A DNA stretch of 53,499 nt from Prorocentrum cordatum. Lineage: Eukaryota. The notes under the pieces are model-generated. The model saw only the letters and a list, made by a program, of their open reading frames with translations, had not been told where the DNA came from and ran no database searches. A program made the position numbers and the translations under genes. Each line of letters starts with the position of its first letter. Position 1 is the first letter of the stretch. Below are positions 1 through 52,422 of the stretch, piece after piece. The stretch lies in assembly GCA_963575745.1 (NCBI GenBank), contig CAUYUJ010000310.1:62001-115499 (forward strand), in the 5' to 3' direction.

Positions 1-1284
1 CGGAGCTTATCAGCTCGACAGGGGCGTCAGTACTCCAGGTTGCCATAAGATCCTGTCCGAGTCCTGACAAGTCGTCGCCGCAATCGTCATTTCCGTCTTC
101 GACGTGCTTTTTAATGCGGCGAGGCTTGATGCCTGCTTCCTTTTCGGCTTTGAGCCTTTCCTTCTGCTTTATACGCGATTCAGTGGGTAAAGCTTGCTCG
201 TTTTGTTCGTCGGTCTGTGTACTCATTGTCGTGGTGGAATGGGTACATGCGTCAATCGCCAGAGTCGGGAGGGGGAGAGAACAGTCATCTATGATGACGC
301 GTCTATGTTTCTGTGGTGATTGAGTAGGCTCGTTTCCGAGCAAGACCGGTTCCTCGGGTTGCCAATACAACCGAGTACTGATGTTGGCAACCCCTGCAGG
401 TAATGGTGCATGCCAATCATACCCTGTTGGTTGATCGGTAACTGAGATATCTTGAATAACCGCGTTGGTATCCAATTGATTGTTACACGTCGGATAACTT
501 CAGACCATTTTGGTCCTCCTTTATGAGTCGTCACGTAATGACGAGTATTATGGTCTGTACGTGTATACGTATTTAAGTATACGGGCACGTTTCCGTGCGT
601 GGTGGTACTCCCCAGGATTTTGTCGTTTAGGTAACGGATGAGTGTAGTACGTGTCTGAGCCCGCCATTCAGCATGTCGTACCGTATGGCCGTACCAGTCC
701 AACACATGTTGTGGTATGGCCTGCTTACAGGTACATGTCCACAGCTTCGAGCTAATCGGTATCGATGATGCTATCTGCATATATGTACCACTTGGTGTAT
801 TGTCTTGCATATTGAACCGAATACCGAAATGACACAAACGCATCCGTATTACTGACAACTTCAGATCTTCCAGAGTATCACGTACTGGAGATAACTTCCA
901 AACGTATCCTGGGGGACCGAATATGATGATTTTCATGCGGAGTTTCTTGGCTTTTATCAACAGGTTCTGGATACGTGACCAGTGTGGGGCCACTCTCTTT
1001 CCTGGAGTTCGTATATACCAGTCACCCGGAGTACTGATCCATATGAGAGTGTAATCTCCACTGATCACCGCACCTAGATAATTTGTGCCCACGCTTGTCA
1101 TAAGTTCGTTGTGGGAAATACGGTCACAAATATAACCTCGTGTGCGGAGGTCGGCACATGCCTCCCTCGTATCTTCAATGACAAAAGCCCTCTTACTAAG
1201 GCAGGTTGCCCCGCTGTCCTTGTTACCCCCCGGCTTTTCAGCCATCAGGCAAGACGACGAGGGGGCGACGTCGCCCTGCCATCT
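1..1284 (-). CDS. 5' part of pol of element 1: degenerate DNMT-like domain and linker, one frameshift near 475, open at the window edge
   Basis: In frame with the polyprotein past the UGA. Contains LIWISTPGDW, IIIFGPPG, MRLCHFG and CTC..H. Restoring one base at about 475 turns RRVTIN-WIP into RRVTINLDTNAVIQD and gives a frame open to position 1 (..LPTESRIKQKERLK..HVEDGNDDCGDDLSGL). Confidence 0.7.
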
Positions 1285-1287
1285 TCA
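1225..1287 (-). promoter_or_regulatory. UGA stop plus H-type pseudoknot: candidate programmed readthrough signal between gag-PR and pol
   Basis: UGA (1285-1287) is in frame with the downstream ORF. Stem 1 is GGCAGGGCGACG (1269-1280) paired with CGUCGUCUUGCC (1248-1259). Loop bases GCCCCCU can pair with GGGGGGU (1225-1231). A GGCU-GAAA-AGCC hairpin (1232-1243) lies between them. Confidence 0.7.
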
Positions 1288-4200
1288 AGATGAAGAAGAT
1301 GTGCCTACAATATCTGCCAACATCTGGGCTTCCCTCAGATGCTGGAGCTCAGCACTGCAGCGCGCCGTGGCCTCAGAGGCGGATTGCTCCGCAAATGCTG
1401 TCAGCATCGATGGATTATCCATCAGCTGTTTCAGCGCGCCTTTGGACCTAGCGTCGCTGACCGTATGCAATTCACGATTAGTGTATCCCATCACTATTTT
1501 ACGGCGGGACTGCACAGCGTCCATGGGTACACTACCACCATGCTTGGCCAGTGTCCTGGCAACAAAACAATCGAACGTCTCGAGATCGTCGATGTTGTCG
1601 CCTCGCATGGTGGCCTTGGCGAGCGTCTCCATCAACCCCTGGGGCAGGTTTCCCTGCAATTGATTGCGCTCCTGCGCTGGGGTCGGCTCGCCTGTCAGCA
1701 CTGTCTGGAAGGACGTGCTGCTTGAGCCCGAGGCGGGTTGCCCCGCAGCTCCAAAACGATCACACCTGATCGACAGATGCCCTGACGGCAACTTCGTCGT
1801 CGGCATGATTTTGGAGCCTTCCGGGAGCTCCATCTTGACCTGCCCCTTACCAGGGAATATCAGCTTTTCCTGGCCTCGTTCAAGCACGATGATCGTGCGT
1901 TTGTCCTGCATACTATCGAGACCTAGGATGGCTGGCAGGTCCTTTCCACAGCCTGACACAATGTTCGTCTTGTATGAATCGTGTTGGGCTGACCCCTGGT
2001 ACTCGCAGGCAATGCTAAATGTGCCTACGGTATCCGCTGGGGCCGACCCCTCTCCCACTCCGTTGATATGCAAACGAGAGCGGGGCTCGAATGTACAAGC
2101 ACGACCATGTGACTCAGCAGCCTGAACGAACTTACGGCTCGTGTTCTCGCCCATGATGTTGATCTTCGAACCGACGTCGATGAGTATGGAATTTCCACCA
2201 TCATCCAAGAACGTCTTACTCGGCTGCTTGATGTGCACAGTTTCTGAAGTGTCGGCTGTGTCGGTAGGCGGGTTTCCCCGCGGCACATTCGTACTCCCTG
2301 GCGGGTTACCCCGCACGACACTGGCATGCGACTCGCTCTCGGCCATGCGTGCCAGGTCAATGTACTGGAAGTACGACACGTGCTGGGCGTGATCACCACG
2401 CTCCTCCCGCCAGTTGGCATACTCATCACGTATGCTCATATACTGCTCGCGGGTAGTGCGCCTTATCAGCGTTAGGTACGAGTGAAGGGCGATGTCTTGC
2501 AGCCCTTCGTTCATGACGTGATCCCGGTACCGCAGCCACTCCTCGAACTCCTCATTCGTCGCTGAGATGTTGACGGCCCTGGCTGCTGCTGCTGACGCCG
2601 CTGAGGATTCTGATAGGTCTAACGACGGACTATCAGTTTCAGGATTATTGGCATCTAGCATAAACGTTGTGTGTGTATTATCCATCTGATTCTGGAAATG
2701 TCGTACACGCAACTCGCGCAGCTGATCAGGGTCCAATGACATCTCAACCTCGCCTCCACTCTGGGGAGACATCTGAGGAGTATCCTGCAGGTTTCCCTGC
2801 TGAGGCGCCGTCATCGGGATAAGCTGATCGAAATATCCCGTTGCCATAGGCGGCCTTACCTCTTCAGGCAGGTGTCCCTGCTGGTGTGACGAAGCTGTCT
2901 GCATAGCTAGCATCCTGGCCGTCATCTCCTCCACCATGCTCCTTAGCTCCCGCAGCTCCCTCATTGACTGCTCGGGAGTCTGACTAAGGGAGCCAGTCCA
3001 TGGGAAGGACGATGTTATAATGCCAGGTGCACGACAGATCGCACATGGTGGCTGCTGTGGATCTCCCTCGCGCTGGTTTGTCACGTGGCCCACCACGTTA
3101 GAATTCCAGCATCCCTCGTGGAATAGGTGATTGCACCTCAGGCGATACACACTATCCCTGGGCTGAAATTCTTCGAGGCATACAGCACAGGTGTCCTCCA
3201 TCCCAGTAAAGACTTCTACGTCTGCTACCCTGGGATATACCCGCCGCTGCCTCTCCAGTACCGTCTCGGAGGGCATGAAGGCTGATGGGGGAGTCCCCGT
3301 TAGGTCCATCACCTCCGGCCCTTCGACATTTGGCATGGAAGTGGTAGGAGTCACGGCGGGCGAGTTTCCTCGCAAAGGTGAGCCCCTATTCCGCACCACA
3401 TCGAGTGCAGCTGCACGTGACTGGTCCCGTACACTTTGCACCGCCTGCCTCCTCATGAAACATGCCTGCTGAGTGTGGTGCGTCTGCCTGATGTAGTCAG
3501 GCACGCCCCTACTGCCAGACGATATTGAATGGGCAGTGGGTTGTACAACCACCTCTGGTGATGTTGGGGAAGGCATGAAGGCCATGTGCGGGTACATGGA
3601 GTGGTCACTGCAGCGCACATTGGTGAGGTGATGCATCTGATCCGCCAATTCCCGAACAAATTTGTTCGGGACCCTTGTACCGTCAGGGTATAATGGCGGA
3701 TTCATCTGCGTGGGTGGTGGCCTCTGGCCCTGAGACATGCTCGGATGGGCGTTGAACGCCAGGATAAAGGCTCTCTGCCGAGCGGGGTCCCGTGGGTTGG
3801 GACCCTCCGGTTCCCAGGACCAGGCTGGCCTCCACCTCTGCCCACTTGGGTGAGGCAGATTATGGTTCTGCACCTGCTGTACCGCGGCCGCCACTCTTGA
3901 GCGATAGTCGTCGGGTATACCCGCCCTGTGGTGGCTTGGTGTACCAGGCAGGTTTCCCTGCTGACTCGTTGGCGTGCCGGGCGGCATCATGTTGAGGAGG
4001 GCTGTGCTGTGATCAGCCCTAGCCGCAGCTAGCCTCTCCATGAGTGTGCCGTTTACTGCAGGGCGAACAGGTGTCCCAAATGGGGATTGTGCTGGCGGAG
4101 TGCCCGCTGGAGTCATGCCCCTTGGAGTGTGCATGCTCTGTGTGGGGCTTGCGTGCATTGGCTCGAACCGAGCAGGTCCGCTTGTAGGCAGGTTTCCCTG

Positions 4201-7200
4201 CATGGCTTGACGATTTCTCGTGGCCATAGCGGACATTGCTCCCTGGCCTGCGGCCCAGGGATCCTGCTGGTACAGCCTGTCCGCCAGCTGTTCTACCTGG
4301 TCAGGGTTCAGCGCAGCTGCAATCTGATCCAGGTCTGAAGTACTTATGGCCTGCCAAGACACGGCGCTCGGCCCTTGGCTTGGGGCACGGCTTGGAGCCG
4401 CGCTCCCGGCCTCACTCTCGGTGATCATAAAGATCCGAAAGATCTCAGGCTGGTTTCCCAGCTGGGTGGGGCTGTAGTGGTCCCCAACGTCCCTGTGGAG
4501 GTAGACCATGGCTGGATCAACGCCCTCTTGGTCTCGGGACCACTTGTACTTAACGCTGGAATCACCAACATCAGCCCACCTATCTGGGGCAGTCATCATA
4601 CTGACAGAGACTCGCGCACGGCGGATCCCCAAATATTCTGGGTTGCGCCATTGCCTTCCAGTGGTCAGGTCCTCTACATGGGAAATGTAATACGGTTCAA
4701 TGATACCGTTATCTCCCTCGGACAAGAGGACTCCGTTATCGGACCAACAGAACTTTATACCATCTTGTATGGCCTTGCGCCAATCTACAAAGATGATGAG
4801 GTCTGATTCTGGGTCCCACCCACTGTTCACGGCACGGCGGCGCAATGTCGGCACGAAGTGGATGTGTGAACGGCCTGTCCCCGTTTTCTTCGTGTTGTGC
4901 TCAGGTCTACAGGACAGGCCGTGCCACATAATGCCTTCGAAAGCGTGCCATCGAGTGCCATGCATGGCGACTTCAGGGTATTTGGCCGGTCTCCCGGCGG
5001 GTTCGTCGCACAGTACAATGTAGCTGTACAGCGACCATGGAGCTTTCAATTTCCATGAATGCCCCTGAGAGGCGCGGACGAAGATAGCAGGCTCGCCAGA
5101 GTCCCGCATTAGCACCTTGAATTGAAGGCGCTGTTTTTCTTCTCCGTCTGGTTCACGAACATGAACAACTTCCATCATGATGGCTGCGAGTTGGTCAACC
5201 GAGCGACCATACAACTGCTCGCTAATAACTTTGGCCTCTTCATAAGCGTGCCTCGAGTGACTTGTGTTCCAAGAAAAGTTCTCCACGAGGTCCACGAGGT
5301 TGATCCAACCATCATGATCATCAAAAGATTTCAGGCGCCACACAGGATTATGTGGCTTATCTGGCGCATGTCTACATATCCTGCTGATAGCTTTGCTTAA
5401 CCTTTTAAGAGTATCATTGGATCTGGGAAGAATTCCGGCCTTCCTGCATTCCTTCATGAATGGCTCATCCACCGAACGTATCGGTGGGAGCTTCCGAAGT
5501 GCCAGTCTATCCCTGATCAGATCTGGAGTCCCACTAGTGAAGGATGTGTCTCCTGGGTGGTGCAGCTGAACTGCTGGCGGGTTTCCCCGCATCGGAGCCT
5601 CTGTTGCTGAAGAGGCTGCGGCTCCTGAAGAGGAGGAAGCTGCGGCAGCAGCGCCTGGCGGGTTTCCCCGCGGAGATGCGCGACTGGCGCTGCCCCTGAT
5701 CTTCGGCACCCAGTTACCCCTCGACATAGCACCTTCATCGGACCTCCTGGAACGAGCCGCCACAGGCGAAGCTGGCGCAGGTGCATACTCACTGCGCTCG
5801 AAAGCTGCCGCCCGTTCCGCAATGGACTTGCTGCGGCTAAGCGAACGTCTTCGTTCCTCAGTGGGGTCCTGGGGTTGCTGCTTGGGCACAGATGCTGGTA
5901 GGAGCTGCTGTTTCGGCGGCGCCGGAGGCGGCTTAGGTGTCGGGGGTTCACTCTTGGCCTTCGAAGTTAGTGGGAGTGGGGGCTTTCTAGCCCCCTTCAT
6001 GTAGAGCTTGCTGGAATCCTCCAGCATCTTGCGAGTTGCCTCGCGTGTGCGTTCATCTACTGTCTGAATACGCTCCTCATCTTCCGCCACACGTTGAGCC
6101 TTTGTCTCGTCCTTGATGATCGGCTCTGGTTGTTGGGACTGGCTAGATACGCCAGGCGAGTTTCCTCGCATACCAGGAAGACTAAAGAGCGCGTCTTTCT
6201 CTTCCTGGGTCATGGCTACCATTCCCCTTGGAGCCGGAGTAGGTTTCTCTTCTTCTTTCGGATCCAAGTGGCCCAAGATCCCGAGACGACTATTCACTGC
6301 TGCGATCTCTTCCGGTGTCATCGGGTCAAGTGGCGGATGGCCCTCCTTAGGAGGGGTTTTGCCCCTGTTGGGGCTCAGGCCTTCGTTGTTTCCAACGGGG
6401 CATCCTGGCCTGTGATTCTGGAACGGCTGGGAACAAGGACCACATGCAGCGTGAGGCCTATACTGCTTGCGAGCCGCGATAATATCTCGCAACTGGGTCC
6501 GCGCTTCTTGAATTTCAGGGCGGCGGATGTTTGTTGCAAGCTGATAGCCTCCACGGATGGGTCTGCCATCGCCGTCCCTATAGGCAGGATTGCCCTGGCC
6601 GAAGGCCGAGTGTTCCCCTTTTCGGCGTCGTGGGTCGTTGTGTGGAAGTAGCTGGCCACCTCTTCTGGCAGCGTGTTCCTTTGGGCCAGCCTGTCTCCAA
6701 TCACGAGGGAGTCGAGCCTGAGGATGTGGCTCTCCTCTGACGCGCGTATGGGAACGAGATCTTCTGGTGTTCTCATCAGAAGAGGCTGCTGATGCAGCAG
6801 GAGCGGCACCCGTTGGAGGTGCTTGAGGAGGCTCCTCTGCGATCCCGGGTGGATCGCTCGATGGAGGCAGGTCTCCCTGCTGGGTGGAGCTCGGCGCAAG
6901 TGGCTCTTGTGCCGATGGTGATGATGGTTCAGACTCATCAGGGTCGAAATCGACCTCTTCCTCACCAGTCACGTCCATCATGAGGATGGTGACGTCATCC
7001 TCATCTAACCCACAACCATCGCCTTCTACTTCTTCTGATGTCGAACTACCAATTATGATGGCCATTGGCGCATCTGGTAAAGGCAGGTTTCCCTGCATGG
7101 CCGGCGTCTGGCCGTCACTCGGCTGTCCTGGAGTAGGAGGCACAGTCGTCGGCTCAGGGTCATCGACGAGCATAGGCTGCCTAGCAATGTTACGCATGGC

Positions 7201-9972
7201 CGTATGGTTTGGCCTCATCCCCAGCTCCTGGAGATTCCATCCTGGCGGGGGAAGATCATGACCACGCATAGCCATTGCCATTTCCAGGGCACGACGCCAT
7301 CTACCATGGGAGTATACTAAGTGTCGTTGCACTTCCTGAGGATTTATACGGTCAATGAGAGACAAAGCTGCCAAGAGTAGCTCTGAGCTACCGCAAGCAT
7401 CATTATCATTATCTGTCATAATACCAGCTTCAATTTGTTCTTGACTCTCAGGATCTGCAATTGCAAGTATCTCATGCGTCCACATGAGGGTCTGCAAAAG
7501 TGTACGCGGTCCATATTCGCCTGGAGCAAGCGAAACAGGAGGTATGAACGGAGAACCTGGTTCACCTGCAATGAAGGCCTGAACAAATGCTTGAGACTCC
7601 ATTTCAATTAAGTCTTCAATAGTATGGGGATATTCTCCCAGCAGAAAAGGCCTGTGTCCAGGCGGGATTTCGGGCGGAGGTTCGAGGTTCTGTTGAACCT
7701 CGGAAGGCGAAGCCTCTATAGTGGTGTCCTCTCCGTCGTTCTCGTAGGCCATGATGTTGCCTGGGTTCCCGAACATCCAGTCGAAGAAGGAAAGAGGCTC
7801 GTTTCCGAGCGTACCGTGTTCCACGGGAGTGAGTTCATTACTGCCCGTGACGAACCGGCGGACGTACTCGAGGTAATACGCGTATAATCCATGACCATAC
7901 CCCTCGAGCTCGTCAATGTTGTCCATGCCAACGACCCATGTGAAAAATATCTGTTCCATAGCCTCAAAGTCCTGGAGGCTCAGATACTCAATGGATGGTG
8001 TGCTTGAGCCGAAATGGACTTCGGACGACATGCCCTTTCCATTTCCCTTCGCTGGACAATCTCGCACAAGATGATCGGTACTACCACACTCATGACATTT
8101 GAGAACCTGGCCGTCTCTACCTCGCGGGTTTCCCCGCCTACCTTTGCCTTTTCCTGAGGTCTCTCTACGGCCTTTACCGCGGCCTTTTCCCCCAAAGAAT
8201 ATCTCATCATGTTGTTCATCTGAGAGCCTCTGGAGAAATGCCGCGATACCTCGCCCGTTCAACCTCCGACGACCACGCTTGCCTTTACCCTTTCCTTTAA
8301 AACTTCTGCGTATCCTCCTTCTAACACGACGCACTGGTTTTCGTGTGAACCTCCTCCACCTTCGCTTAGCCTGTTGTAACAGCCAGAATAAATGCTCAGC
8401 ACGCTGATTGTCGTTATCCATATTCATGATATCTGACCAATCTAGAGCTTCAACACCATCTGATGATATAGTGTCTGTATCGGTGCCGGAGTCGAAATCT
8501 TCGTCTCCTAAATAGGTGGATACACCGTCGGTTAGGGGATTTGATTCCCCCCATAACGAGCGGTGTGGTTGTGGTTCTCTAGAAGGAGGGCTGGTTGCCC
8601 AGCTTGGTTGTGATCGATCCCCTGCTAATAAAGCAGTGGATTCTCCTGGGTCATCGGCCCATATGTTTGAGGGCCCGTTTCCAGGCTGGACTTCAGTAGT
8701 CAAGGTAGTGTAGAAATTTCCACTACCAGATCCCCTTCCTCTTCCAAACACGGATCCTATGTTGCCAGGGGATCGTTCGGATAGGTGACCTACCGAACGC
8801 ATCGTTTCCAGCAACTCATCATATTGTTGTTGTGTTCGAGGCATTTGGTGGTTGAGTGGCTGCAAGAGTTGCGTGGCTTTCTGGTTGCCGACGCCTAAGG
8901 CGCGGAATAGGATAGTAGTTAGCAGTTGGAAGTTAAGAAGGTCGAATCCCACCGACTGTGCCTCAAGTCGGGCCATTTCGAATCGGGTAAGAGTGACATC
9001 GATTCGTTCCCCGTGAGCCGCATGGAAGTCGATGAGTTGTGTGCCGGAAGTGAGCTGTCGCTCATCTTCCAGGCGTTCGAACTTCATGCTGAGGAGGAAC
9101 ATGATGTAAGTTACTGGGTCCGTGTGGACCCCATCAATGTCAGCACCATAGTTTATAATGTCAGGCGGTACCCTCATGGCGAGTGTCCTCGCTAGGCCTC
9201 CCAGGCCGCGTTGTATTGCGGCCGCTTGGGCCTGTGGCGTCATACGTCCGCTTGTAACGTTGAGCCACGCGTTGACCTCGTAAATGTACTCACGAAAAGG
9301 TACATTACCCTGAGGGTCCCAGTATGGGCCATGTGTTTGCCCATCGGTGCTGTTATCTCCCCGACGCATGTGTGCGATTGCTGCCCCCAGCGCGAACCAT
9401 ATGATAGCGAAAACGATTAGCCCGAGAATGTGTAACGAAGAATGGTTATGATGAGCGGTGTCACGCTGGGGTAGCGCCTTGTCGAGTCTTCGAGGCGCTC
9501 TGTCTGGCGGGTTTCCCCGCCCTTGCTTCAGGTATTGCGTTATTGGCTCGTTGCCGAGCGGTTGATAGTAACGCAATGATGAAGCGTATATGGTACCAAT
9601 CTGGTCGTCTAGACGTCGTACCTCTCGTGTAGCTTCTTGCTCTTGAATAGATCCTCGTAAATGTACTGGGAGTGGTGGCGCAGGGTAGTAGGTGGTCACG
9701 AAGATCGCGCCGAAGAGTGTGAGGCTGAGAAGAGCAAGAGCTGACCACGCGAGAGGGCGGCCAGCTCCGCTACCAAGTCGAAAGTGAGCTTGGTAACTCA
9801 AATAGGGCATATAGCCTGTCATATAGCATCCGATTCCAAGGCGCTGACCGTGGACATCGGATGGCAAATAGCGTCCATCGCTCTGCTGTAGCTGTGAAGG
9901 TACAGTATGAGGGGTGGGCGGATAAGATAGGATAAGATCGATGTAATGATCTTTCCAGCACATAGCGAACAC
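1285..9972 (-). CDS. Gag-protease polyprotein with Tpt1/KptA and RING-H2 cargo (2895-aa ORF; first AUG after the PBS is at 9369)
   Basis: Uninterrupted 8.7-kb ORF with gag (about 8780-9369), CHECGSTDHLVRDC knuckle, Tpt1, RING-H2 and a retropepsin-like domain. The first ~65 codons lie in the putative LTR. Confidence 0.9.
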   Translation of the reverse strand: MFAMCWKDHYIDLILSYPPTPHTVPSQLQQSDGRYLPSDVHGQRLGIGCYMTGYMPYLSYQAHFRLGSGAGRPLAWSALALLSLTLFGAIFVTTYYPAPPLPVHLRGSIQEQEATREVRRLDDQIGTIYASSLRYYQPLGNEPITQYLKQGRGNPPDRAPRRLDKALPQRDTAHHNHSSLHILGLIVFAIIWFALGAAIAHMRRGDNSTDGQTHGPYWDPQGNVPFREYIYEVNAWLNVTSGRMTPQAQAAAIQRGLGGLARTLAMRVPPDIINYGADIDGVHTDPVTYIMFLLSMKFERLEDERQLTSGTQLIDFHAAHGERIDVTLTRFEMARLEAQSVGFDLLNFQLLTTILFRALGVGNQKATQLLQPLNHQMPRTQQQYDELLETMRSVGHLSERSPGNIGSVFGRGRGSGSGNFYTTLTTEVQPGNGPSNIWADDPGESTALLAGDRSQPSWATSPPSREPQPHRSLWGESNPLTDGVSTYLGDEDFDSGTDTDTISSDGVEALDWSDIMNMDNDNQRAEHLFWLLQQAKRRWRRFTRKPVRRVRRRIRRSFKGKGKGKRGRRRLNGRGIAAFLQRLSDEQHDEIFFGGKGRGKGRRETSGKGKGRRGNPRGRDGQVLKCHECGSTDHLVRDCPAKGNGKGMSSEVHFGSSTPSIEYLSLQDFEAMEQIFFTWVVGMDNIDELEGYGHGLYAYYLEYVRRFVTGSNELTPVEHGTLGNEPLSFFDWMFGNPGNIMAYENDGEDTTIEASPSEVQQNLEPPPEIPPGHRPFLLGEYPHTIEDLIEMESQAFVQAFIAGEPGSPFIPPVSLAPGEYGPRTLLQTLMWTHEILAIADPESQEQIEAGIMTDNDNDACGSSELLLAALSLIDRINPQEVQRHLVYSHGRWRRALEMAMAMRGHDLPPPGWNLQELGMRPNHTAMRNIARQPMLVDDPEPTTVPPTPGQPSDGQTPAMQGNLPLPDAPMAIIIGSSTSEEVEGDGCGLDEDDVTILMMDVTGEEEVDFDPDESEPSSPSAQEPLAPSSTQQGDLPPSSDPPGIAEEPPQAPPTGAAPAASAASSDENTRRSRSHTRVRGEPHPQARLPRDWRQAGPKEHAARRGGQLLPHNDPRRRKGEHSAFGQGNPAYRDGDGRPIRGGYQLATNIRRPEIQEARTQLRDIIAARKQYRPHAACGPCSQPFQNHRPGCPVGNNEGLSPNRGKTPPKEGHPPLDPMTPEEIAAVNSRLGILGHLDPKEEEKPTPAPRGMVAMTQEEKDALFSLPGMRGNSPGVSSQSQQPEPIIKDETKAQRVAEDEERIQTVDERTREATRKMLEDSSKLYMKGARKPPLPLTSKAKSEPPTPKPPPAPPKQQLLPASVPKQQPQDPTEERRRSLSRSKSIAERAAAFERSEYAPAPASPVAARSRRSDEGAMSRGNWVPKIRGSASRASPRGNPPGAAAAASSSSGAAASSATEAPMRGNPPAVQLHHPGDTSFTSGTPDLIRDRLALRKLPPIRSVDEPFMKECRKAGILPRSNDTLKRLSKAISRICRHAPDKPHNPVWRLKSFDDHDGWINLVDLVENFSWNTSHSRHAYEEAKVISEQLYGRSVDQLAAIMMEVVHVREPDGEEKQRLQFKVLMRDSGEPAIFVRASQGHSWKLKAPWSLYSYIVLCDEPAGRPAKYPEVAMHGTRWHAFEGIMWHGLSCRPEHNTKKTGTGRSHIHFVPTLRRRAVNSGWDPESDLIIFVDWRKAIQDGIKFCWSDNGVLLSEGDNGIIEPYYISHVEDLTTGRQWRNPEYLGIRRARVSVSMMTAPDRWADVGDSSVKYKWSRDQEGVDPAMVYLHRDVGDHYSPTQLGNQPEIFRIFMITESEAGSAAPSRAPSQGPSAVSWQAISTSDLDQIAAALNPDQVEQLADRLYQQDPWAAGQGAMSAMATRNRQAMQGNLPTSGPARFEPMHASPTQSMHTPRGMTPAGTPPAQSPFGTPVRPAVNGTLMERLAAARADHSTALLNMMPPGTPTSQQGNLPGTPSHHRAGIPDDYRSRVAAAVQQVQNHNLPHPSGQRWRPAWSWEPEGPNPRDPARQRAFILAFNAHPSMSQGQRPPPTQMNPPLYPDGTRVPNKFVRELADQMHHLTNVRCSDHSMYPHMAFMPSPTSPEVVVQPTAHSISSGSRGVPDYIRQTHHTQQACFMRRQAVQSVRDQSRAAALDVVRNRGSPLRGNSPAVTPTTSMPNVEGPEVMDLTGTPPSAFMPSETVLERQRRVYPRVADVEVFTGMEDTCAVCLEEFQPRDSVYRLRCNHLFHEGCWNSNVVGHVTNQREGDPQQPPCAICRAPGIITSSFPWTGSLSQTPEQSMRELRELRSMVEEMTARMLAMQTASSHQQGHLPEEVRPPMATGYFDQLIPMTAPQQGNLQDTPQMSPQSGGEVEMSLDPDQLRELRVRHFQNQMDNTHTTFMLDANNPETDSPSLDLSESSAASAAAARAVNISATNEEFEEWLRYRDHVMNEGLQDIALHSYLTLIRRTTREQYMSIRDEYANWREERGDHAQHVSYFQYIDLARMAESESHASVVRGNPPGSTNVPRGNPPTDTADTSETVHIKQPSKTFLDDGGNSILIDVGSKINIMGENTSRKFVQAAESHGRACTFEPRSRLHINGVGEGSAPADTVGTFSIACEYQGSAQHDSYKTNIVSGCGKDLPAILGLDSMQDKRTIIVLERGQEKLIFPGKGQVKMELPEGSKIMPTTKLPSGHLSIRCDRFGAAGQPASGSSSTSFQTVLTGEPTPAQERNQLQGNLPQGLMETLAKATMRGDNIDDLETFDCFVARTLAKHGGSVPMDAVQSRRKIVMGYTNRELHTVSDARSKGALKQLMDNPSMLTAFAEQSASEATARCSAELQHLREAQMLADIVGTSSSS
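1760..2200 (-). other. Retropepsin-like aspartic protease domain of element 1
   Basis: ILIDVGSKINIMG (D-x-G active-site strand), flap-like INGVGEG, LPAILGLDSM and KLPSGHL. Confidence 0.75.
3034..3189 (-). other. RING-H2 (C3H2C3) zinc finger inside the polyprotein
   Basis: CAVC-x14-CNHLFHEGC-x21-CAIC, with all eight ligands present. Confidence 0.9.
4670..5410 (-). other. TPT1: Tpt1/KptA RNA 2'-phosphotransferase domain inside the polyprotein
   Basis: Family motifs in the correct order: LSKAISRICRH, DHDGWINLVDL, KQRL, FVRASQGHS, HGT, GLS, GRSHIHF, SGW, IIFVDWRKAIQDGIKFCWSDNGVLLSEG-DNGIIEP. Confidence 0.9.
8056..8097 (-). other. CCHC zinc knuckle (nucleocapsid) of element 1
   Basis: CHECGSTDHLVRDC = C-x2-C-x4-H-x4-C, preceded by basic KGKGKG/RR tracts. 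Confidence 0.92.
9764..9775 (-). promoter_or_regulatory. Primer-binding site of element 1 (tRNA-iMet type)
   Basis: TGGTAGCGGAGC, identical to the PBS next to the LTR of element 3. Confidence 0.85.
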
Positions 9973-10053
9973 TCGCGGTGTCCGGGCAAATAGGGCGCGC
10001 GTGCCTTGAGCCCAAGGCAGCGGCGCGCGAGCTATGCTCCCGATACTGTAACA
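9778..10053 (-). repeat. Putative 5' LTR of element 1
   Basis: Starts TGTTAC on the minus strand, ends just before the PBS and contains an SL-like motif. The partner LTR is outside the window and the 3' end is not a clean CA. Confidence 0.55.
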
Positions 10054-10071
10054 TCTCCCAAAGAGCTACCC

Positions 10072-11020
10072 TTAAAGTAGCTGCACGCCCGGGTAGATGT
10101 CTGTTAACCACTTGGCGTCCAGCTTGTTCTTGTGGCCCCTGTTCCTGTCCGCCGGCAGGTAGTGCACCGTCTCAGCGAACAGCGGGAGCTCCTTGCGGTA
10201 CCTCTTCCCGCGGATCCTCTCGTACGCCGTGCGTCCGTCCGCCCCGACGTCGAACGGGCTGATCACCGCGCCTGCGTAGTTGATGAGCCACGGCACGATT
10301 GCATGGTCGTGGCCGATCTTGATCCCATACTGGCGCTCCACCGCCAGCTTCAGGGTCCGCACGATGCCGCTCACGGACTGCACCGCCCGCTCGATCGTGC
10401 CGTTAGCCTGGTGCTCCTCCACCGGGCTCTCCTCCTTCACGATCTTGAAGGTTTCACCCAGCGCCTCGATGACCTTGCTCTTCAGGTCCAGGATCGAGGG
10501 CTCCTGGTCACTCTTGAAGATGAAGTGCTTCACCCCCGTGTACTCGATGGCCTCCGCCACCCACTTGATAATCCAGGCATCTTTCGTGCCCTTACTCGTC
10601 GCGGCGATCGACGCCGTCCATCGCCCCTTGTGCTCACGCATCACCAGCGTGGGCTCTGCTCGCTCGTCGTCTCCACCGAAGAACGTGTAGTCAATGGAGA
10701 TCGTGTTGACTAGATGCTCTCGCTCAGCGTCCAGTCGTCGGTGGTCAGCATTGCGGCCGCGTCCTCCCACGCAGTCTCAGCACCATGCCCTGAACTGCAC
10801 GTGCCCTGCCGCCTCGTGCATCTCCCGCTCGACCGTCGTCGGCTCGAACGGCCGCGGCGCCACCGTGACCGGTGGGTCGCCCATGTCGTCGTCCTCCTCG
10901 TCCTCCAGCGTGGGCTCCACGGGTTCCGCCGCCGCCGGCGCTGCCGCTGAGCTTCCGCCTTCTCGCCGAGGAGGGTCCCCGGTGTTCGGTCTTGCGGCTG
11001 AGCCCGCCGACTGTCCCCCG
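10072..11020 (-). pseudogene. Integrase of element 2 (nonsense codon at 10777-10779, 3'-truncated)
   Basis: HHCC zinc domain HEAAGHVQFRAWC*DC, then DDE core ISIDYTF, KSDQEPSI, QANGTIERAV, followed by DGRTAYER and KLDAKW. Confidence 0.88.
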
Positions 11021-12752
11021 ACATCGCGCTGATGTCTGGGGCGTTCCTCTCCTGGCCACTGACCCTCTTCAGCTTGAGGGTGTGGACTCCACGTCTGAGG
11101 TGGATCGGCAGCCTCCTGCCGGTCGCGAGGTGCTTCAGGTAGCACTCCTTCGGCCCAGAGTAAATCTCGTGGCCCTTCTCCACCAGCTTCGACACCGCCA
11201 GCAGCATGCGGTGCACTCCTGTCGACGTGCACCTGAGTCGCCTTGTGCTGCCGTCCTCCGCCATGACCTCGATGACCTTCTCGCCTTCGTCCCGCGCCAA
11301 CTGTCCGTTGGCCGCTCGGTAACTCGTGCCCATCTCGCTGGACACTGTCGGCCTCGCCCGCACGTCCGTGAACCAGGTGTTCGGGGCAACGCTCTCCGCC
11401 GCCCCGGAATCCACTGCTGCGTAGAAGTATTCTTCCGTCGCATCGTCCACCGCATTCAGCTCTAGGGTGCACAGGTCCAGCCCGCCGAGGTTGCCAGGCT
11501 GCTCGGTCTCGTGTTCCTGCTTGTCGTTCGCCTCCAGGCTGTTGGCACCACGTTGTCCTGTTTGCTGTCCACGATTCGTGGGGCAGTCCTGCCGCTTGTG
11601 TCCCCAGCCCCAGCGCTGTGAGCAGTAGCCTTGGAATCCTTGCTGTTGTTGCTGGTGCTGGCCTTGCTGTCCACCTGGTCGCTGCCGAGGCGGGTTGGGC
11701 GAAGACGGCTTGCCCTTGGTCTTCTCCTTGCCTTTGCTCTTGCCCTTGCCGCCCTTGCTGTCGCCCTTGCCCTTGCCCTTCGGGCTCTGGGTGCCCTTGT
11801 GTGCGCCTCCGCCTGGCATCCAGCAGTCGACCTTCTTGTGGCCCTTTTTGCCGCAGTTGTTGCAGGTGATGTCCTTCTGGTCGAGGCTGCCGACGTCCAT
11901 GGGGGTCGCGTGGTCGTTCACCTTCGACTCCAAGTAGCTCTGGATCTCCTCGCGCACACTCACGTACGTCTTGAGCTTGTTCGCGTTGAGCACCAGGTGG
12001 TCCTTGAGAACGCCCTTTGTCATGCTCACGAACACCTGCGCTTTGATGTCCTCCTGCATCGCATGGCCGGCCCGCCTCTCGTAGACGCGGACCCGCTCTT
12101 CCCACTTGGCTATGTGGCTGTTCAGCTGCGGGGCGTCGACCGCTCCCGGTTGAATTAGCGAACCCAGGATGTTGCGCTTCCTGCCAGCTCCTTGTGGGTC
12201 GAACCTCCTCGCTATCACACGCCAAGCTTCGAACCCGTCGTTGTCCTTCGTCGCCTGCACTAGATCCAGAGCTTCGCCATCGCAGAGCTGAGCCAACACC
12301 GTGCACAGCTGCCGGCCGATGGTCTTGATGTCCGTGTCCTCGTGCTCTAAGGTGAAGATCTCCCCGATCTCGTCTAAGTTCTCTCTCGTGAGCGGCTCTT
12401 CCTGATCTTGGACGTAATTCAGGGCCTTCTTGATGCCCGTCGTCACACTCTCCAGGAAATTGGTCAAGTTGAAAGCCCAGCCGCCCCACGCCTTCATGTC
12501 GCTGTTGAAGACCGTCGGCTTGCCAATACCCTTGACGTCTACCAACTGCACCTTCCTCTTGGTCGTTTCCTTCTCCAGGATGATCGTCTGCTGCAGCTTG
12601 GTCATTGCCTCGAGGTCCTGCACTCGTTGGGCCTGGACCGTGTTCATCAGGTCCCTCTGCCTCGTCAACTCTGTCATGAGTTCTCGCACTTGTGCTGTCA
12701 ACTCTTGCAGCTGCTCTTCTGTCGTGCTCATTGTCTCGACGGTGTAAAACAC
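10710..12752 (-). CDS. Gag-protease of element 2 (probable start 12731; meaningful part ends near 11020)
   Basis: DVKGIGKPTVF, GFEAWRVIARRFDP, TPMDVGSL, CNNCGKKGHKKVDC, a second decayed knuckle, and protease AAVDSGAAESV..YRAANG..LLAVSKL. Confidence 0.88.
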   Translation of the reverse strand: MFYTVETMSTTEEQLQELTAQVRELMTELTRQRDLMNTVQAQRVQDLEAMTKLQQTIILEKETTKRKVQLVDVKGIGKPTVFNSDMKAWGGWAFNLTNFLESVTTGIKKALNYVQDQEEPLTRENLDEIGEIFTLEHEDTDIKTIGRQLCTVLAQLCDGEALDLVQATKDNDGFEAWRVIARRFDPQGAGRKRNILGSLIQPGAVDAPQLNSHIAKWEERVRVYERRAGHAMQEDIKAQVFVSMTKGVLKDHLVLNANKLKTYVSVREEIQSYLESKVNDHATPMDVGSLDQKDITCNNCGKKGHKKVDCWMPGGGAHKGTQSPKGKGKGDSKGGKGKSKGKEKTKGKPSSPNPPRQRPGGQQGQHQQQQQGFQGYCSQRWGWGHKRQDCPTNRGQQTGQRGANSLEANDKQEHETEQPGNLGGLDLCTLELNAVDDATEEYFYAAVDSGAAESVAPNTWFTDVRARPTVSSEMGTSYRAANGQLARDEGEKVIEVMAEDGSTRRLRCTSTGVHRMLLAVSKLVEKGHEIYSGPKECYLKHLATGRRLPIHLRRGVHTLKLKRVSGQERNAPDISAMSGDSRRAQPQDRTPGTLLGEKAEAQRQRRRRRNPWSPRWRTRRTTTWATHRSRWRRGRSSRRRSSGRCTRRQGTCSSGHGAETAWEDAAAMLTTDDWTLSESI

Positions 12753-13004
12753 AATCGAAGCCTCTCACGCAGCTCCTTGGCACATACTCTCTGAAGTAGT
12801 TGCCCAACGTGGCCCCAGTAGCGCTGAAACCGTCTGATTCTCCAGAGCTGCTCGCAAACTCTCCACCACTGTTCGTGCGCAGACCAGTCACGCCTGCTGC
12901 GCCGAACCACACGCCAATCAGTTTTCTCAGAAAGCTCGTCGTCGCTATCGGGGCGCCCCGCGCCCGAGGATGTGGAAAGGTTGCCGCTGGATCGCAATGA
13001 ACCA

Positions 13005-23957: not shown

Positions 23958-24970
23958 CCCCCAAAACCATCCTGTGGTGATGGGTCCTCGTTTCGAAGAG
24001 ACGGTGGCCCGCGTCTCCTCTCCCCCTCCTGCTCTCCTCCTCCTCCTCCTCCTCCTCCTCCTCCTCCTCCTCTCCTCTCCCCGCCCCCCCCTCCTCCTCC
24101 CACTCCTCCCTCCTCCCCCTCTTCCTTGCGTTTCACCAGGCCAGTGCAGCGTTTCGTAGCCCCATCGGGAGCTCCACCGACGGCGCCAGCGGCAGGGTTC
24201 GCATGGCGGCCCTGGGCCATTTCGGCACACCCCTCACGAGGATCGTTGCCCCATGGGGAGCTCCACCGAAGGCCCCAGTGGCAGCGTTCGCATGGCGGCC
24301 TCGGGGCATTTCGGCACACCCCTTACGAGTTTCGTGGCGCCATAGATGAGCTCCACCGAAGGCGCCAGTGGCAGCGTTCGCATGGCGGCCTCGGGCATTT
24401 CGGCACACCCTCACGAGGATCGTGGCCCCATAGGGAGCTCCACCGAAGGCGCCAGTGGCAGCGTTCGCATGGCGGCCTCGGGCCATTTCGGCACACCCCT
24501 CACGAGGATCGTGGCCCCATAGGGAGCTCCACCGAAGGCGCCAGTGGCAGCGTTCGCATGGCGGCCTCGGGCCATTTCGGCACACCCCTCACGAGGATCG
24601 TGGCCCCATGGGGCGCTCCACCGAAGGCCCCAGTGGCAGCGTTCGCATGGCGGCCTCGGGGCATTTCGGCACACCCCTCACGAGGATCGTGGCCCCATAG
24701 GGAGCTCCACCGAAGGCCCCAGTGGCAGCGTTCGCATGGCGGCCTCGGGCCATTTCGGCACACCCCTTACGAGGATCGTGGCGCCTATAGGACAGGGGCT
24801 TCGCCGAGGGCGCCAGTGGCAGGGTTCGCATGGCGGCCTCGGGCCATGTCGGCACACCCCTCACGAGGATCGTGGCCCCATAGGAGCTCCAGCGAAGGCG
24901 CCAGTGGCAAGGTTCGCACGGCGGCCTCGGGCCATTGCGGCACACCCCTCGCGAGGATCGCGGCCCCATA
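23958..24970 (+). repeat. Composite repeat A: conserved head, (CCT)n, then about nine 89-bp tandem units
   Basis: Unit CGTGGCCCCATAGGGAGCTCCACCGAAGGCGCCAGTGGCAGCGTTCGCATGGCGGCCTCGGGCCATTTCGGCACACCCCTCACGAGGAT (89 bp). The head is shared with 30730-30784. Confidence 0.92.
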
Positions 24971-25199
24971 GATGCGTTGCCTCAACAGCCGCGCCCTGGC
25001 GTCGTACTCCGCCGTGCCGAAATGCAACGCCACCTCCTCCCTCATGGCTCTCAAAGCCCTCTTCTGCTTATTTGCTCCTCGGTCAGAGGGGCGCCGTCCG
25101 TGTCGTCGTCGGCGCCCGCGAAGACGGCCGCGAACGTGTTCCTGAGCATGTCGGGCTCCGGCGTGAAGCTGTGGCTGCATAGGGGGCGCGGGCAAAGAT

Positions 25200-30723: not shown

Positions 30724-31678
30724 TTTCCCAACCATCCTGTGGTGTTGGGTCCTCGTTTTGAAGAGACGGTGCCCCGCGTCTCCTTCCTCTCCTCCTCCGC
30801 CTCCTCTCCCCTCCTATCATCGTCATCATCATCATCATCATCACCATCGTCATGCGTCAAGCACACCCATTTTGGCACATCCCTCACACGTTTCGTGGCC
30901 CCATAGGGAACTCCACCTAAGGTCCAAGTGGCGCAGCTCGCATGGCGCCACCGCTCTATTTTGGCACACCCCTCACACGTTTCGTGGCCCCATAGGGAGC
31001 TCCATTTACGGTCCAAGTGGCGCAGCTCGCATGGCGCCACCGCCCCATTTTGGCACACCCCTCACGCGTTTCGTGGCCCCATAGGGAACTCCATCTACGG
31101 TCCAAGTGGCGCAGCTCGCATGGCGCCACCGCCCCATTTTGGCACACCCCTCACAGATTTCGTGGCCCCTCAGGGAGCTCCTTTTGGCACACCCCTCACA
31201 CGTTTCGTGGCCCCATAGGGAGCTCCACCTAAGGTCCACGTGGCGCAGCTCGCATGGCGCCACCGCCCCTTTTTGGCACACCCCTCACACGTTTCGTGGC
31301 CCCATAGGGAGCTCCATTTACGGTCCAAGTGGCGCAGCTCGCATGGCGCCACCGCCCCATTTTGGCACACCCCTCGCAGATTTCGTGGCCCCTCAGGGAG
31401 CTCCACCTGAGGTCCAAGTGGCGCAGCTCGCATGGCGCCACCGCCCCATTTGGGCACACCCCTCACACGCTTCGTGGCCCCATAGGGAGCTCCACCTAAG
31501 GTCCACGTGGCGCAGCTCGCATGGCGCCACCGCCCCTTTTTGGCACACCCCTCACACGTTTCGTGGCCCCATAGGGAGCTCCATTTACGGTCCAAGTGGC
31601 GCAGCTCGCATGGCGCCACCGCCCCATTTTGGCACACCCCTCTCACTTTTCGTGGCCCCTCAGGGAGCTGCACCTAAG
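30724..31678 (+). repeat. Composite repeat B: same head, pyrimidine/(CAT)n tract, then about nine 89-bp tandem units of a related variant
   Basis: Unit CGTGGCCCCATAGGGAGCTCCATTTACGGTCCAAGTGGCGCAGCTCGCATGGCGCCACCGCCCCATTTTGGCACACCCCTCACACGTTT, period 89. Confidence 0.92.
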
Positions 31679-31679
31679 G

Positions 31680-32268
31680 TTCCTGAGGGAAAAGCCTCAC
31701 GGGGGACCTCGCGGGCCCGCTGGTGTTCATCGAGCCCCGCGCGTCGGAGCCGTTCACCTTCCGCACCTCCAAGGTCACGCGGACGGGCTTCCCGTTCTCG
31801 CACGGCAGGGTCATCACCGCGGTGGCGTGCCAGGGGCGCGCCATGCGCGAAGGCGACGGGGCGGGGGAACGGCGCTCCGGGGACGGCCAGACCTCCGGGG
31901 CGCGAGCAGTCCGCGGCCAGACCTCGGTCCTGTGGACTCTCGCCCTGGGCCGTCGGCTGCCCGGCGCACTGCTCCCTCGGCCGAGTCGCCCAGGTGTGAT
32001 CCTGGACTGCGGCCGCCACGAGGTCGGGAACGGCAAGAAGGAGGACGACGACTGGTGGCTGGAGCTCTATGTGCTGCTCTCGCGCGCCACGCGCCGCGAG
32101 GACCTCCTGCTCATGCGGGCGCCGCGCATCGAGTTCTTCCTGGCAGGACCGCCGGAGGGCCTGCGAAAGCAGCTGGAGCAGTTTGCAGCGCGCGCGAAGC
32201 GGTGCAGGAGGGAGGCGACGGCCCTCGCCAGGGAGCTCGGCTTCACCGAGTTTATCCGCGAGGCCTGA
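31680..32268 (+). pseudogene. C-terminal Pif1-family (Helitron-type) helicase fragment, two exons
   Basis: VTRTGFPFSHGRVITAVACQGRAM (motif V-like), VILD and LYVLLSRATRREDLLL (motif VI-like). Confidence 0.7.
31853..31993 (+). other. Putative 141-nt GC-AG intron with terminal inverted repeats
   Basis: Junctions AG|GC..CAG|G. Removal joins QGRAMRE-G-VILDCGR. GGCGAC and GTCGCC lie at the two ends. Confidence 0.65.
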
Positions 32269-36124: not shown

Positions 36125-37029
36125 GCGATCGCATGAATTCGGCATATTTCTCAAACGATTTAGGTTATCCCCTGTTTTCCTCGAGCAATTTGTGCTGGTT
36201 AAGTTTGGCTTCGCGCGATCTTGGCACGGCGGCCCCCCGGTGGCCGAGGCCGGGGAACGCTCAGCCTGGGCTCCGCCTCTCACCCAAGGAAAGGAGACAC
36301 GTCAAGGCCAGGACATATCAAATTGAGAGGTGGAGCGCCATGATCGGCTGCGTGTTCCGCCCTGGGTGTCCTCCTCGTCGTCCTCCTCCTCTTGAGGGGG
36401 TCCCGCCCCTGAAGGGGGGGGCGGGCCCTCCGCCCATTCGCCAAAACATGCAACCTGCCCGAGCCAGAAAACTGCGAGGCTGGAGGACAAGGGCGAAGAG
36501 GACAGGCGACTGGCGAGCCGGGGGGTCCAACTGTTACCGGGTAGGCCTTAACATAACCATTCTCGCATGAGCGCCGCGCGCATTCGTGTGAACACTTTGC
36601 GCGCGTGTCAAGGATGGAAGGCGGGGTGTTTTGAAAACGCGACTGTCGCCCCAGCGCCGCGCACATCCGTCTTAAAGTTTCCGAACAGTTCTGAAGATGG
36701 AAGGCGGCTAATTTCCAAATGTTGCTCTCGTTTTAACGCCGCGCGCAGTCGTCTCAAAAGCTCACGGCATTTTCAAAGCTTCCTAAGGTTGCAACTCAAG
36801 AGTGCTGTTCTGGCACGGCCTAGGCTTGTCAGGACGCAGCAGTCACGTTGATTCGCGGGGTTCAAGTCCCAAGAACGGTGTTTTTGCACGATCCAGGAGT
36901 GTCACGGCGCGATAATCACGTTGATTCGCGTCGCTGAAATCCCAAGAACGGTGTTTGGGCACGATTGAGATTCTGAAGCAGTCGCTTTCCCATGGGGCAC
37001 TTCCCGCAATGACAATTATCCCAGTGCGA

Positions 37030-37562
37030 CCCTACCTAGGAGGTGGTCCCCCTAGGAAAGCAGCATTAGTAGTAACAGTAAAGCTAAGCTAAAGCTAAGC
37101 TAAAGCTAAGCTAAAGCTACGCTGCAGCTAAGAAGAAGCTAAGCTAAAGCTAAGCTGCAGCTAAGCTAAAGCTAAGCTAAAGCTAAGCTGAAGCTATGTT
37201 ACAGCTAAGCTGAAGCTAAGCTAAAGCTAAGCTAAAGCTAAGCTAAAGCTACGGCAAAGCTAAGGTACAGCTAAGGTAAAACTAAGCTAAGGCTAAGCTT
37301 AAAGCTAAGCTAAAGCTAAGCTAAATCTAAGCTAAAGCTAAGCTAAAGCTAAGCTTAAGCTAAGCTGAAGCTAAGCTAAAGCTAAGCTGAAGCTAAGCTA
37401 AAGCTAAGCTAAAGCTAAGCTAAAGCTAACACTAAAGCTAAAACTCCCAAGTGCCTGGGGGAAGTGCTCCCAAGGATCGGGGGAACCGCCCCGGGCGATT
37501 TGCACTGCCGGGCCCTTTAAGCGAAGACAGTAAAAACCCTTCTAGCCAGAGCCTAGGTAGGG
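37030..37562. mobile_element. Non-autonomous element with 11-bp inverted repeats and an internal (GCTAAAGCTAA)n array; Helentron/DINE-like or MITE-like
   Basis: CCCTACCTAGG (37030-37040) and CCTAGGTAGGG (37552-37562), with possible stem-loops at both ends. Confidence 0.6.
37081..37440. repeat. 11-bp minisatellite GCTAAAGCTAA (about 32 units)
   Basis: Directly visible. Confidence 0.95.
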
Positions 37563-42481: not shown

Positions 42482-42632
42482 TGGATTGTTCAGTGCGCAA
42501 GCCCCTGAGCCCTAGTATGATTACGTCGGGTCTTCATCACTGCTGCTGCTGCGCTGCTGTGCATCATTCAACCTCTGAACTGATACTGCACTTGGTCTTA
42601 GTCAAACCCTAGAGTACATCTGAGTTCTCACT
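42482..42632 (-). repeat. 3' LTR of element 3 (alignable part; may extend to about 42937 across a (TA)n tract)
   Basis: 151 bp ungapped match to 52423-52573 with 16 mismatches by manual count; ends in CA on the minus strand. Confidence 0.9.
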
Positions 42633-52419: not shown

Positions 52420-52422
52420 AAC

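Follow-up and report, generated by a model that had tools for sequence, protein, structure and literature searches.

Chromodomains are known accessory domains of Ty1/copia-type elements, and gammaretroviruses use read-through of the gag-pol stop codon with a downstream pseudoknot. Other accessory domains described in long terminal repeat (LTR) elements include a DnaQ-like exonuclease (PMC6338049) and DNA methyltransferases (PMC5890265). The RNA 2'-phosphotransferase Tpt1/KptA, for which we use the Arg-His-Arg-Arg tetrad definition of PMC12678800, is rare in eukaryotic viruses. It is embedded in polyproteins of Beihai picorna-like virus as well as of Botrylloides leachii nidovirus, and its presence in the polyproteins of a few RNA viruses was interpreted as RNA-end processing, in passages on KptA that do not mention retroelements (PMC9503650). 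The present study concerns a stretch of 53,499 nucleotides (hereafter the window) of the Prorocentrum cordatum contig CAUYUJ010000310.1 (assembly GCA_963575745.1, positions 62,001 to 115,499 of the forward strand), which holds the visible part of a probable, diverged Ty1/copia-like retroelement with a Tpt1 domain fused into its Gag-Pro polyprotein. No description of a Tpt1-retroelement fusion was found in a full-text literature search that left subscription journals and supplements outside. Retrotransposons are known to acquire accessory enzymes, and within the literature searched Tpt1 appears as a new addition to this cargo.

The domain and the polyprotein that carries it are laid out as follows (aa, amino acids):
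4714..5406, minus strand: Tpt1/KptA RNA 2'-phosphotransferase domain, aa 1554-1784, assigned by Pfam, model, fold and motifs
1285..10065, minus strand: Gag-Pro polyprotein open reading frame (ORF; P0001), 2926 codons from stop to stop, with the TGA at 1285-1287
7954..9417, minus strand: Gag-like conserved region, aa 217-704, matching 7 of 32 related loci and preceded by hydrophobic segments
8053..8100, minus strand: CCHC zinc knuckle, aa 656-671 (zf-CCHC, E 9.8e-4, 19.6 bits, below the cut-off of 20.8)
3031..3195, minus strand: RING finger, aa 2291-2345 (zf-RING_11, E 1.7e-8; zf-RING_2, E 1e-5)
1756..2286, minus strand: retropepsin-fold aspartic protease, aa 2594-2770, with the motifs D2630-V-G-S, NGVGEGS and AILGLDSM

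A reading made earlier from the letters alone (the sequence-only reading) had claimed a complete two-lobed Tpt1 at 4670-5410, and both the Pfam PTS_2-RNA profile search and the structure prediction that it proposed bear this out. The domain was found at that place, with a match to PF01885 (E 6.2e-23; score 82.2 bits, the cut-off being 26) that covers nearly the whole profile (positions 4-177 of 177), and its homology with a far relative, the metagenome protein P0160, is wider than the Pfam span (aa 1506-1815, window 4621-5550). Only human and mouse TRPT1 were retrieved by a PDB sequence search at E <= 0.01 (E 1.2e-12 and 7.6e-11, respectively). The AlphaFold2 model, based on a 76-row alignment, is confident and TRPT1-like (mean predicted local distance difference test, pLDDT, 82.4; predicted template modelling score, pTM, 0.77). 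All 22 PDB entries matched by this model at E <= 1e-3 in a fold search are Tpt1/KptA structures, the best being human TRPT1 7yw3 (E 6e-14, template modelling score, TM, 0.75 on target) and mouse 7yw2 (TM 0.78). The TM on target reached 0.64-0.78 for most full-length Tpt1 structures and was lower for 9ld4_A (0.44), 9ldi (0.40) and 7kw8 (0.39).

Every motif named in the sequence-only reading is present, including the SGWD that replaces the usual SGxR. Their positions are as follows: ICRH at aa 1563-1566, EKQR at 1643-1646, VRASQGHS at 1663-1670, HGT at 1702-1704, GRSHIHF at 1731-1737, SGWD at 1748-1751 and SDNGVLL at 1775-1781. Alignment to canonical Tpt1 shows the catalytic tetrad kept as R1565-H1566 (ICRH), R1664 (VRASQGHS) and R1732 (GRSHIHF). 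The tetrad was thus rightly called intact, and only the assignment of one of its arginines to KQR has to be corrected, this residue belonging to the conserved EKQR motif. The arginine of SGxR is absent, D1751 standing at its position; as it is outside the classical defining tetrad, membership in Tpt1 stands, though the chemistry may differ. According to profile, motifs and predicted fold, the domain is a real and complete two-lobed Tpt1 (a winged-helix N-terminal lobe and an NAD+ lobe of the ADP-ribosyltransferase type) with an intact tetrad, for which catalysis is plausible. Its predicted identity as a 2'-phosphotransferase or 5'-phosphate ADP-ribosyltransferase dependent on nicotinamide adenine dinucleotide (NAD+) is likewise plausible.

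The same reading had placed Tpt1 in frame between the knuckle and the protease, and it does lie in a stop-free ORF of 2926 codons, between a knuckle at aa 656-671 and a protease at about aa 2594-2770. Its description of a fusion into a Gag polyprotein was right as to the Gag type of the polyprotein, which is more exactly a Gag-Pro polyprotein that also includes the RING finger. The protease, which had been guessed from D-x-G, has no Pfam match and is nevertheless recognisable as a retropepsin by its homologues, its model and its fold matches. Its piece of the ORF (window 1288-2328) has 27 relatives in a large protein collection, the alignment of which displays an invariant D-x-G, a flap-like NGVG and an LPAILGxDSM motif. 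Its model is confident (pLDDT 82, core above 90) and is matched by Foldseek with the proteases of feline immunodeficiency virus (FIV), equine infectious anaemia virus (EIAV), xenotropic murine leukaemia virus-related virus (XMRV), human immunodeficiency virus 1 (HIV-1) and Rous sarcoma virus (RSV) and with the Ddi1 RVP (probability 1.00, TM 0.46-0.56 on target). The RING finger occurs in 8 of the 27 ORFs scanned from relatives, each time 5' of the protease, and to our knowledge such a ubiquitin-ligase-type domain seems unusual in the structural polyprotein of a retroelement. The CCHC knuckle of the window is conserved in one related locus (L018). Relaxing Pfam to E <= 5 brought no meaningful match for the Gag and protease parts, the two conserved segments beyond the stop (down1 and down2, below) and two linker parts, and a Gag-region profile retrieved only insignificant knuckle matches (E about 2) from PDB sequences. 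The ESM Atlas gave Retrotrans_gag clusters at 0.89 for the Gag region, below a potyvirus coat at 0.90, both being leads only. Two hydrophobic segments resembling membrane helices precede the Gag-like region (window 9380-9760, minus strand, aa ~105-230), and L016 and L028 start with a similar hydrophobic segment.

The fusion recurs outside the window. P0160, a protein of 1379 aa that fills a metagenome contig of 4295 nucleotides (nt), can be aligned colinearly with the polyprotein over aa 1406-2636 (34% identity), in the order pre-Tpt1 region, Tpt1, middle region, RING and first protease motif, and keeps the tetrad. P0010 and P0084 are further variants of P0160, and in P0084 as well as in P0019 the C-terminal lobe of Tpt1 is joined to the downstream polyprotein flank. 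Eight protein clusters of Pyramimonas sp. CCMP1952 in EukProt match various portions of the domain and of its flanks, with 52-79% identity over the Tpt1 part (48% in the ENA fragment P0027). P0003, P0011 and P0012 are three different sequences of the Pyramimonas set over one stretch, which implies at least three distinct copies in this set. Between the window and P0160, identity amounts to 40% over the Pfam span of Tpt1, 49% over the RING and 22-30% over several linkers; together with the kept tetrad, HGT and SDNGVLL, this pattern points to purifying selection. No long relatives of the Tpt1 part were found among proteins of 1609-5121 aa, and locus scans with an alignment of the Tpt1-RING part (A1) gave no match in metagenome contigs or viral contigs. 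Among sequencing runs, 20 from 14 studies contain some of the words sampled from the ORF, the best share being 0.67, perhaps in the source sample, with shares of 0.21-0.47 in nine others; no RNA run is among them, and these shares are not counted as evidence here. The colinear sequences indicate that the fusion is real, multi-copy and conserved in diverged independent copies. The single-copy fusion that the sequence-only reading had set out as its possible undoing is not what was found, since the fusion is multi-copy and an independent contig shows it conserved, with 34% identity.

A quick maximum-likelihood tree was computed from 146 domain sequences, after removal of three near-duplicates and of 18 matches that fell short of 150 aa. 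Window-type Tpt1 forms a clade in it (support 94), the sister of which consists of seven metagenome proteins that have the insert SCRxEHN in common, located ahead of the fourth Arg. Both groups together make up 12 rows, which a long branch (support 99) separates from all others. Another retroelement protein, P0202 (3651 aa, on a contig of 15,896 nt, in the cluster of P0105), displays rve at 650-734, RVT_2 at 1320-1535 and Tpt1 at 3418-3609 (E 2e-29), and its Pol is 30% identical to that of L006, one of the related loci, over 1568 aa. Its Tpt1 is at the extreme C-terminal end, with about 1600 aa without assigned domain between the reverse transcriptase (RT) and Tpt1. It is 29% identical to that of the window and was placed within another clade (42 rows, support 98). 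Owing to this separate branching, two captures of Tpt1 seem more likely than one, although this comes from a quick tree with long branches. The two placements, in Gag-Pro in the window and, in P0202, at the Pol C-terminus, suggest an activity useful to reverse-transcribing elements and no accident.

The element family was defined from 32 metagenome loci, obtained by a locus scan with a protease alignment (A4, a smaller set than the diverse A3), and 27 ORFs from the 12 longest of these loci were scanned with Pfam. The protease of the window matches 31 of the 32 loci and the RING region matches many of them. Beyond the Gag-Pro ORF, the following features were delineated by comparison with these loci:
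1..10065, minus strand: visible part of the retroelement, colinear with the 32 metagenome loci, its integrase (IN)-RT portion lying beyond the window start
1250..1287, minus strand: stop and stem, a proposed read-through signal, with the TGA at 1285-1287, a 6-nt spacer, a 10-bp stem and a C-rich loop
292..1284, minus strand: conserved domain of ~200 aa (down1), directly after the stop and in the same frame, matching 22 of 32 loci at 21-52% identity
2..499, minus strand: conserved Pol-side segment (down2), matching 12 loci, in a frame different from that of down1

Down1, located between the protease and the integrase in the family, has no Pfam match and no family in the ESM Atlas (the nearest, DNA_methylase at 0.76, being probably due to chance). 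Relatives have it in one frame with down2 (in L004, within a single ORF), unlike the window copy, where the frame changes at about 336-593 (minus strand), by a recent disabling indel or by a sequencing indel. RVT_2 was matched, slightly below its gathering score, in ORFs of the relatives 3' of the protease (L006, 4.2e-7; L024, 7.5e-7; L028, 1.2e-6; L002, 5e-4). The order protease, integrase and then RVT_2-type RT is that of Ty1/copia; as the window ends before the IN-RT portion, we infer the latter from the relatives for the window copy. The retrotransposon call of the sequence-only reading is supported by these relatives, which carry RVT_2 and rve 3' of the same protease, while the window itself ends before any RT. 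By its gene order the family is most probably a diverged Ty1/copia-like retroelement, with the arrangement Gag-CCHC-RING-protease, stop and stem, a domain without assignment, and IN-RT.

In the nine long loci where this could be judged, the protease ORF is followed by a single stop and a long ORF in the same frame, and the same layout after the protease was observed in all of 28 loci, the stop being TAG in 22 and TGA in 6 of them. The stem begins 6-7 nt after the stop and its inner pairs vary between loci; in the window, positions 1269-1278 pair with 1250-1259 around the C-rich loop at 1260-1268. Over 20 aligned sequences, pairing amounts to 83% of the cells, as compared with 47-57% in controls with a slid partner; both sides have changed in 7 of the 10 pairs, and the covariation score was attained by no shuffle out of 500. 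We propose that this arrangement, one in-frame stop with a covarying stem after it, is a programmed read-through signal leading to Pol. The C-rich loop could also pair with a G-rich partner 8-26 nt further 3', the longest match averaging 5.3 (shuffles, 3.75), a match that is clear in eight loci and not significant in the window, so that a second stem, forming a pseudoknot, is suggestive only.

The coding sequence of the element also contains a recurrent RNA motif:
336..9554, minus strand (the element's sense strand): GCNNG-GNRA-CNNGC hairpins, 27 in number, with the first base of the loop at 9554, 9515, 8598, 8132, 7805, 7091, 6875, 6392, 6164, 6039, 5666, 5585, 4993, 4457, 4217, 4196, 3956, 3368, 2795, 2309, 2276, 1741, 1652, 1387, 1239, 593 and 336

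None was observed on the antisense strand of the element, and the other 43.4 kb of the window contain 7 on both strands. Within the ORF only, there are 24 hairpins, against 1.3 in codon shuffles and 3.0 (maximum 8) in synonymous shuffles that keep the protein. Twenty-one of the 27 are in one phase and encode x-G-N/D-x-P (binomial P 3e-6), which explains the excess of G-N-x-P peptides (16 against 0.7 expected), and GGGAAAC is the version found at 11 of 19 in-phase sites. Covariation is seen in the stems (CAG/CTG, CGG/CCG, CGA/TCG, CTC/GAG and CAC/GTG) and the hairpins flank the folded domains. Some relatives harbour the same motif with stems of their own (GCACG in L006, GCGCG in L018, TCACG in L017) and P0160 has R-G-D-A-P at positions aligned with the window motif; the motif was absent from the more distant relatives examined. 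No Rfam match was obtained for window 1-13000 at E <= 0.1. At a guess, these hairpins are dispersed packaging or Gag-binding signals.

Two other explanations of the repeated motif were considered and rejected. GGGAAAC could be a -1 frameshift site at which translation stops in the linkers, an idea that found no support, as the -1 frame stays open for a median of 29 codons past these sites, against a background of 13. The peptide x-G-N-x-P could be a mere protease cleavage motif, which is rejected as the sole cause by the reverse-complementary flanking codons and by the 3.0 hairpins left in synonymous shuffles against the 24 observed.

Several repeats and a second fragment occur elsewhere in the window. 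A different copia-like fragment is adjacent upstream of the element (10072-12764, minus strand); it shows the protease motif DSGA and an integrase-like core (D-D-E) in addition to a Gag-like part and a CCHC knuckle. GNRA hairpins are absent from it, Pfam sees only a weak knuckle match in it, and its last ORF shares the frame of the ORF of 2926 codons, from which two stops separate it. An 89-nt tandem repeat forms two arrays 6 kb apart (24038-24971 and 30777-31833) and an 11-nt tandem array is found at 37024-37484. Two direct repeats of 152 nt (42481-42632 and 52422-52573), 89% identical and 9.9 kb apart, flank minus-strand ORFs without Pfam matches and may belong to another element.

We consider it somewhat better than an even chance that a copia-like Gag-Pro sub-lineage captured a eukaryote-type Tpt1/TRPT1 and kept it for NAD+-dependent action on the phosphates of its own RNA or cDNA. 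Encoded before the read-through stop, Tpt1 would be produced at the level of Gag and the protease; it would enter the particle as part of the polyprotein, be freed there by the retropepsin of the element, and use NAD+ to attack phosphates on the element's own nucleic acid. Its most likely task would be the removal of internal 2'-phosphates from the element RNA, which could originate from the resealing of cleaved RNA by a host activity of the tRNA-ligase type and would hinder the reverse transcriptase. An internal 2'-phosphate was reported to inhibit reverse transcriptase at low deoxynucleotide (dNTP) concentration (PMC5824351), and its removal would keep the RNA template copyable.

Several observations weigh against this interpretation, either in its copia-like setting or in the role given to Tpt1. 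PF01885 was found in none of the 27 scanned ORFs of relatives, and aa 705-2076 of the polyprotein have no match in any of the 32 loci (E <= 1e-5). In three of these loci (L025, L028 and L029) a single ORF contains both knuckle and RING and nothing Tpt1-like in between, the spacing being 300-500 aa against about 1620 aa in the window. Being absent from the DNA available for the 32 related loci, Tpt1 is an accessory and not a requirement of this type of element; as far as these alignments go, it is an insertion in a variable knuckle-RING linker, fixed in one sub-lineage. In the relatives, RVT_2 and rve score slightly below the Pfam gathering thresholds (for RVT_2, 30.2 bits in L006, 29.4 in L024 and 28.7 in L028, with a cut-off of 31.6), and the window itself has no RT or IN detected by Pfam and no LTR pair. 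The Gag region is assigned by position, with the knuckle and the weak Atlas lead. The frame break between down1 and down2 suggests that the window copy may be inactive. As for the chemistry, the R136A mutant of the archaeal TkoTpt1 gives intermediates and no final product (PMC12678800); considered with the missing SGxR arginine, this suggests that simple removal of 2'-phosphates may be impaired in the window sub-lineage, the reaction of which may stop at the ADP-ribosylated intermediate.

This last point leads to the alternative that survives best, which we hold as possible though unlikely: the same domain would act as a nucleic-acid ADP-ribosyltransferase, performing the first step and then stalling, so that the ends of the element would be capped with ADP-ribose, or host RNA marked. 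Such caps would shield the ends of the element's RNA or cDNA from exonucleases or sensors. The arginine concerned is replaced in the window and P0003 (SGWD) and in P0160 (SGF-V), and SGxR is present in canonical enzymes, in the sister clade and in P0202. It corresponds to Arg136 of TkoTpt1, as mapped through the alignment of PhoTpt1 (TGMRH). In that enzyme Arg136 contacts the target phosphate and ADP-ribose, and the mammalian TRPT1, which are the closest solved relatives of the window domain, are described as producing 5'-end ADP-ribosylation (PMC12678800). On the other hand, the R136A data were obtained with one archaeal enzyme on 5'-phosphate DNA, and another mutant of this kind, K63A, does no harm to the enzymes of yeast and mammals (PMC12678800). 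The window Tpt1 moreover retains the tetrad residues required for both steps, and an Asp or a Val at the position of the SGxR arginine could be compensated elsewhere. A more specific combination, in which the TRPT1 captured by an algal copia-like clade would be a particle-borne ADP-ribosyltransferase capping its own RNA or cDNA, with the GNRA hairpins as recognition or packaging marks through which genome, Gag and enzyme would meet, is more doubtful still.

It is improbable that Tpt1 is a passenger, i.e. a piece of host TRPT1 caught by chance in a tolerant linker and drifting without a role. The hypervariable nature of the knuckle-RING stretch, the lack of Tpt1 in most relatives and the damaged appearance of some Pyramimonas fragments (P0015 has ICRY and P0012 loses the frame) would fit such a history, but the tetrad, HGT and SDNGVLL are retained between copies only 34-40% identical. 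Against P0160, Tpt1 is also about as conserved as the RING and better conserved than several linkers. The diversified 12-row clade with its common insert signature, and a second retroelement lineage (P0202) with Tpt1 at another position, argue in the same direction. An artefact, either an assembly chimera of a host Tpt1 gene with a transposon or an immobile multidomain host gene, is highly improbable: no second copy of the element and no LTR were found inside the window, which counts in its favour, but a single ORF of 2926 codons spans every junction, the same domain order occurs on an independent contig with flanks common to further fragments, element-specific hairpins are placed upstream (5666 and 5585), inside (4993) and downstream (4457) of Tpt1, and for the protease, RING and down1 there are 22-31 related loci, which carry RT too.

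The preferred reading, a Tpt1 kept for action on the element's own phosphates, points to a repair or marking of the elements' RNA by the elements themselves, and leads to the testable idea that reverse transcription is limited in vivo by 2'-phosphates or by RNA ends. If true, it would link retroelement biology to the RNA repair and ADP-ribose world of phage-host and RNA-virus conflicts; if the capping alternative is true, a retroelement would chemically mark its own genome with NAD+. The loss of the second-step arginine represents a natural experiment on the mechanism of Tpt1. The read-through signal and the covarying hairpins in the coding sequence are of interest for RNA packaging and translation.

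Compared with Ty1/copia elements (Pseudoviridae), the window family shares a multi-copy nature and, judging from its relatives and from a Gag assigned by position, the gene order Gag-knuckle-protease-IN-RT with an RVT_2-type RT, and the window lineage took up a host enzyme as an extra polyprotein domain, as did the Ty1/copia elements with accessory domains. It differs from Ty1/copia in being so diverged that Pfam misses Gag, protease and IN, in having a RING before the protease and an extra conserved domain between the protease and IN, and in probably reaching Pol through an in-frame stop and stem after the protease. The single in-frame TAG or TGA, the short spacer and the conserved stem recall gag-pol of gammaretroviruses, in which, unlike in the window family, the stop precedes the protease.

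The comparison with RNA viruses concerns the polyprotein context of the domain. A viral fold search with the Tpt1 model gave eight matches at E <= 1e-3, which comprise giant viruses, a baculovirus and a phage in addition to RNA-virus polyproteins; the replicase of the Botrylloides leachii nidovirus ranked third among them (E 7e-11), and no reverse-transcribing virus occurred. As in the RNA viruses described in PMC9503650, Tpt1/KptA is located inside a polyprotein, from which it would presumably be freed by the element's own protease, and would act on the element's own RNA. Unlike in those animal RNA viruses, where the domain belongs to the replicase, it belongs here to the structural Gag-Pro of a reverse-transcribing element. 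The context of the window family is made of protease, IN and RVT_2, and not of the RNA-dependent RNA polymerase (RdRp) replicase that characterises the RNA viruses with KptA.

With the cellular enzymes Tpt1, TRPT1 and KptA (7yw3 and 7yw2, the yeast 7yw4 and the archaeal TkoKptA 9ld4), the window domain shares the two lobes, the tetrad, HGT, RxHIH and SDNGV, and among them it is nearest to the animal enzymes in both sequence and fold. Unlike cellular Tpt1, which is a free protein of about 200-250 aa, it is enclosed in a retroelement polyprotein of 2926 aa, has a longer N-terminal lobe and an insert of roughly 10 aa (SCRPEHNTKKTG) before the fourth Arg, and carries an Asp in place of the SGxR arginine.

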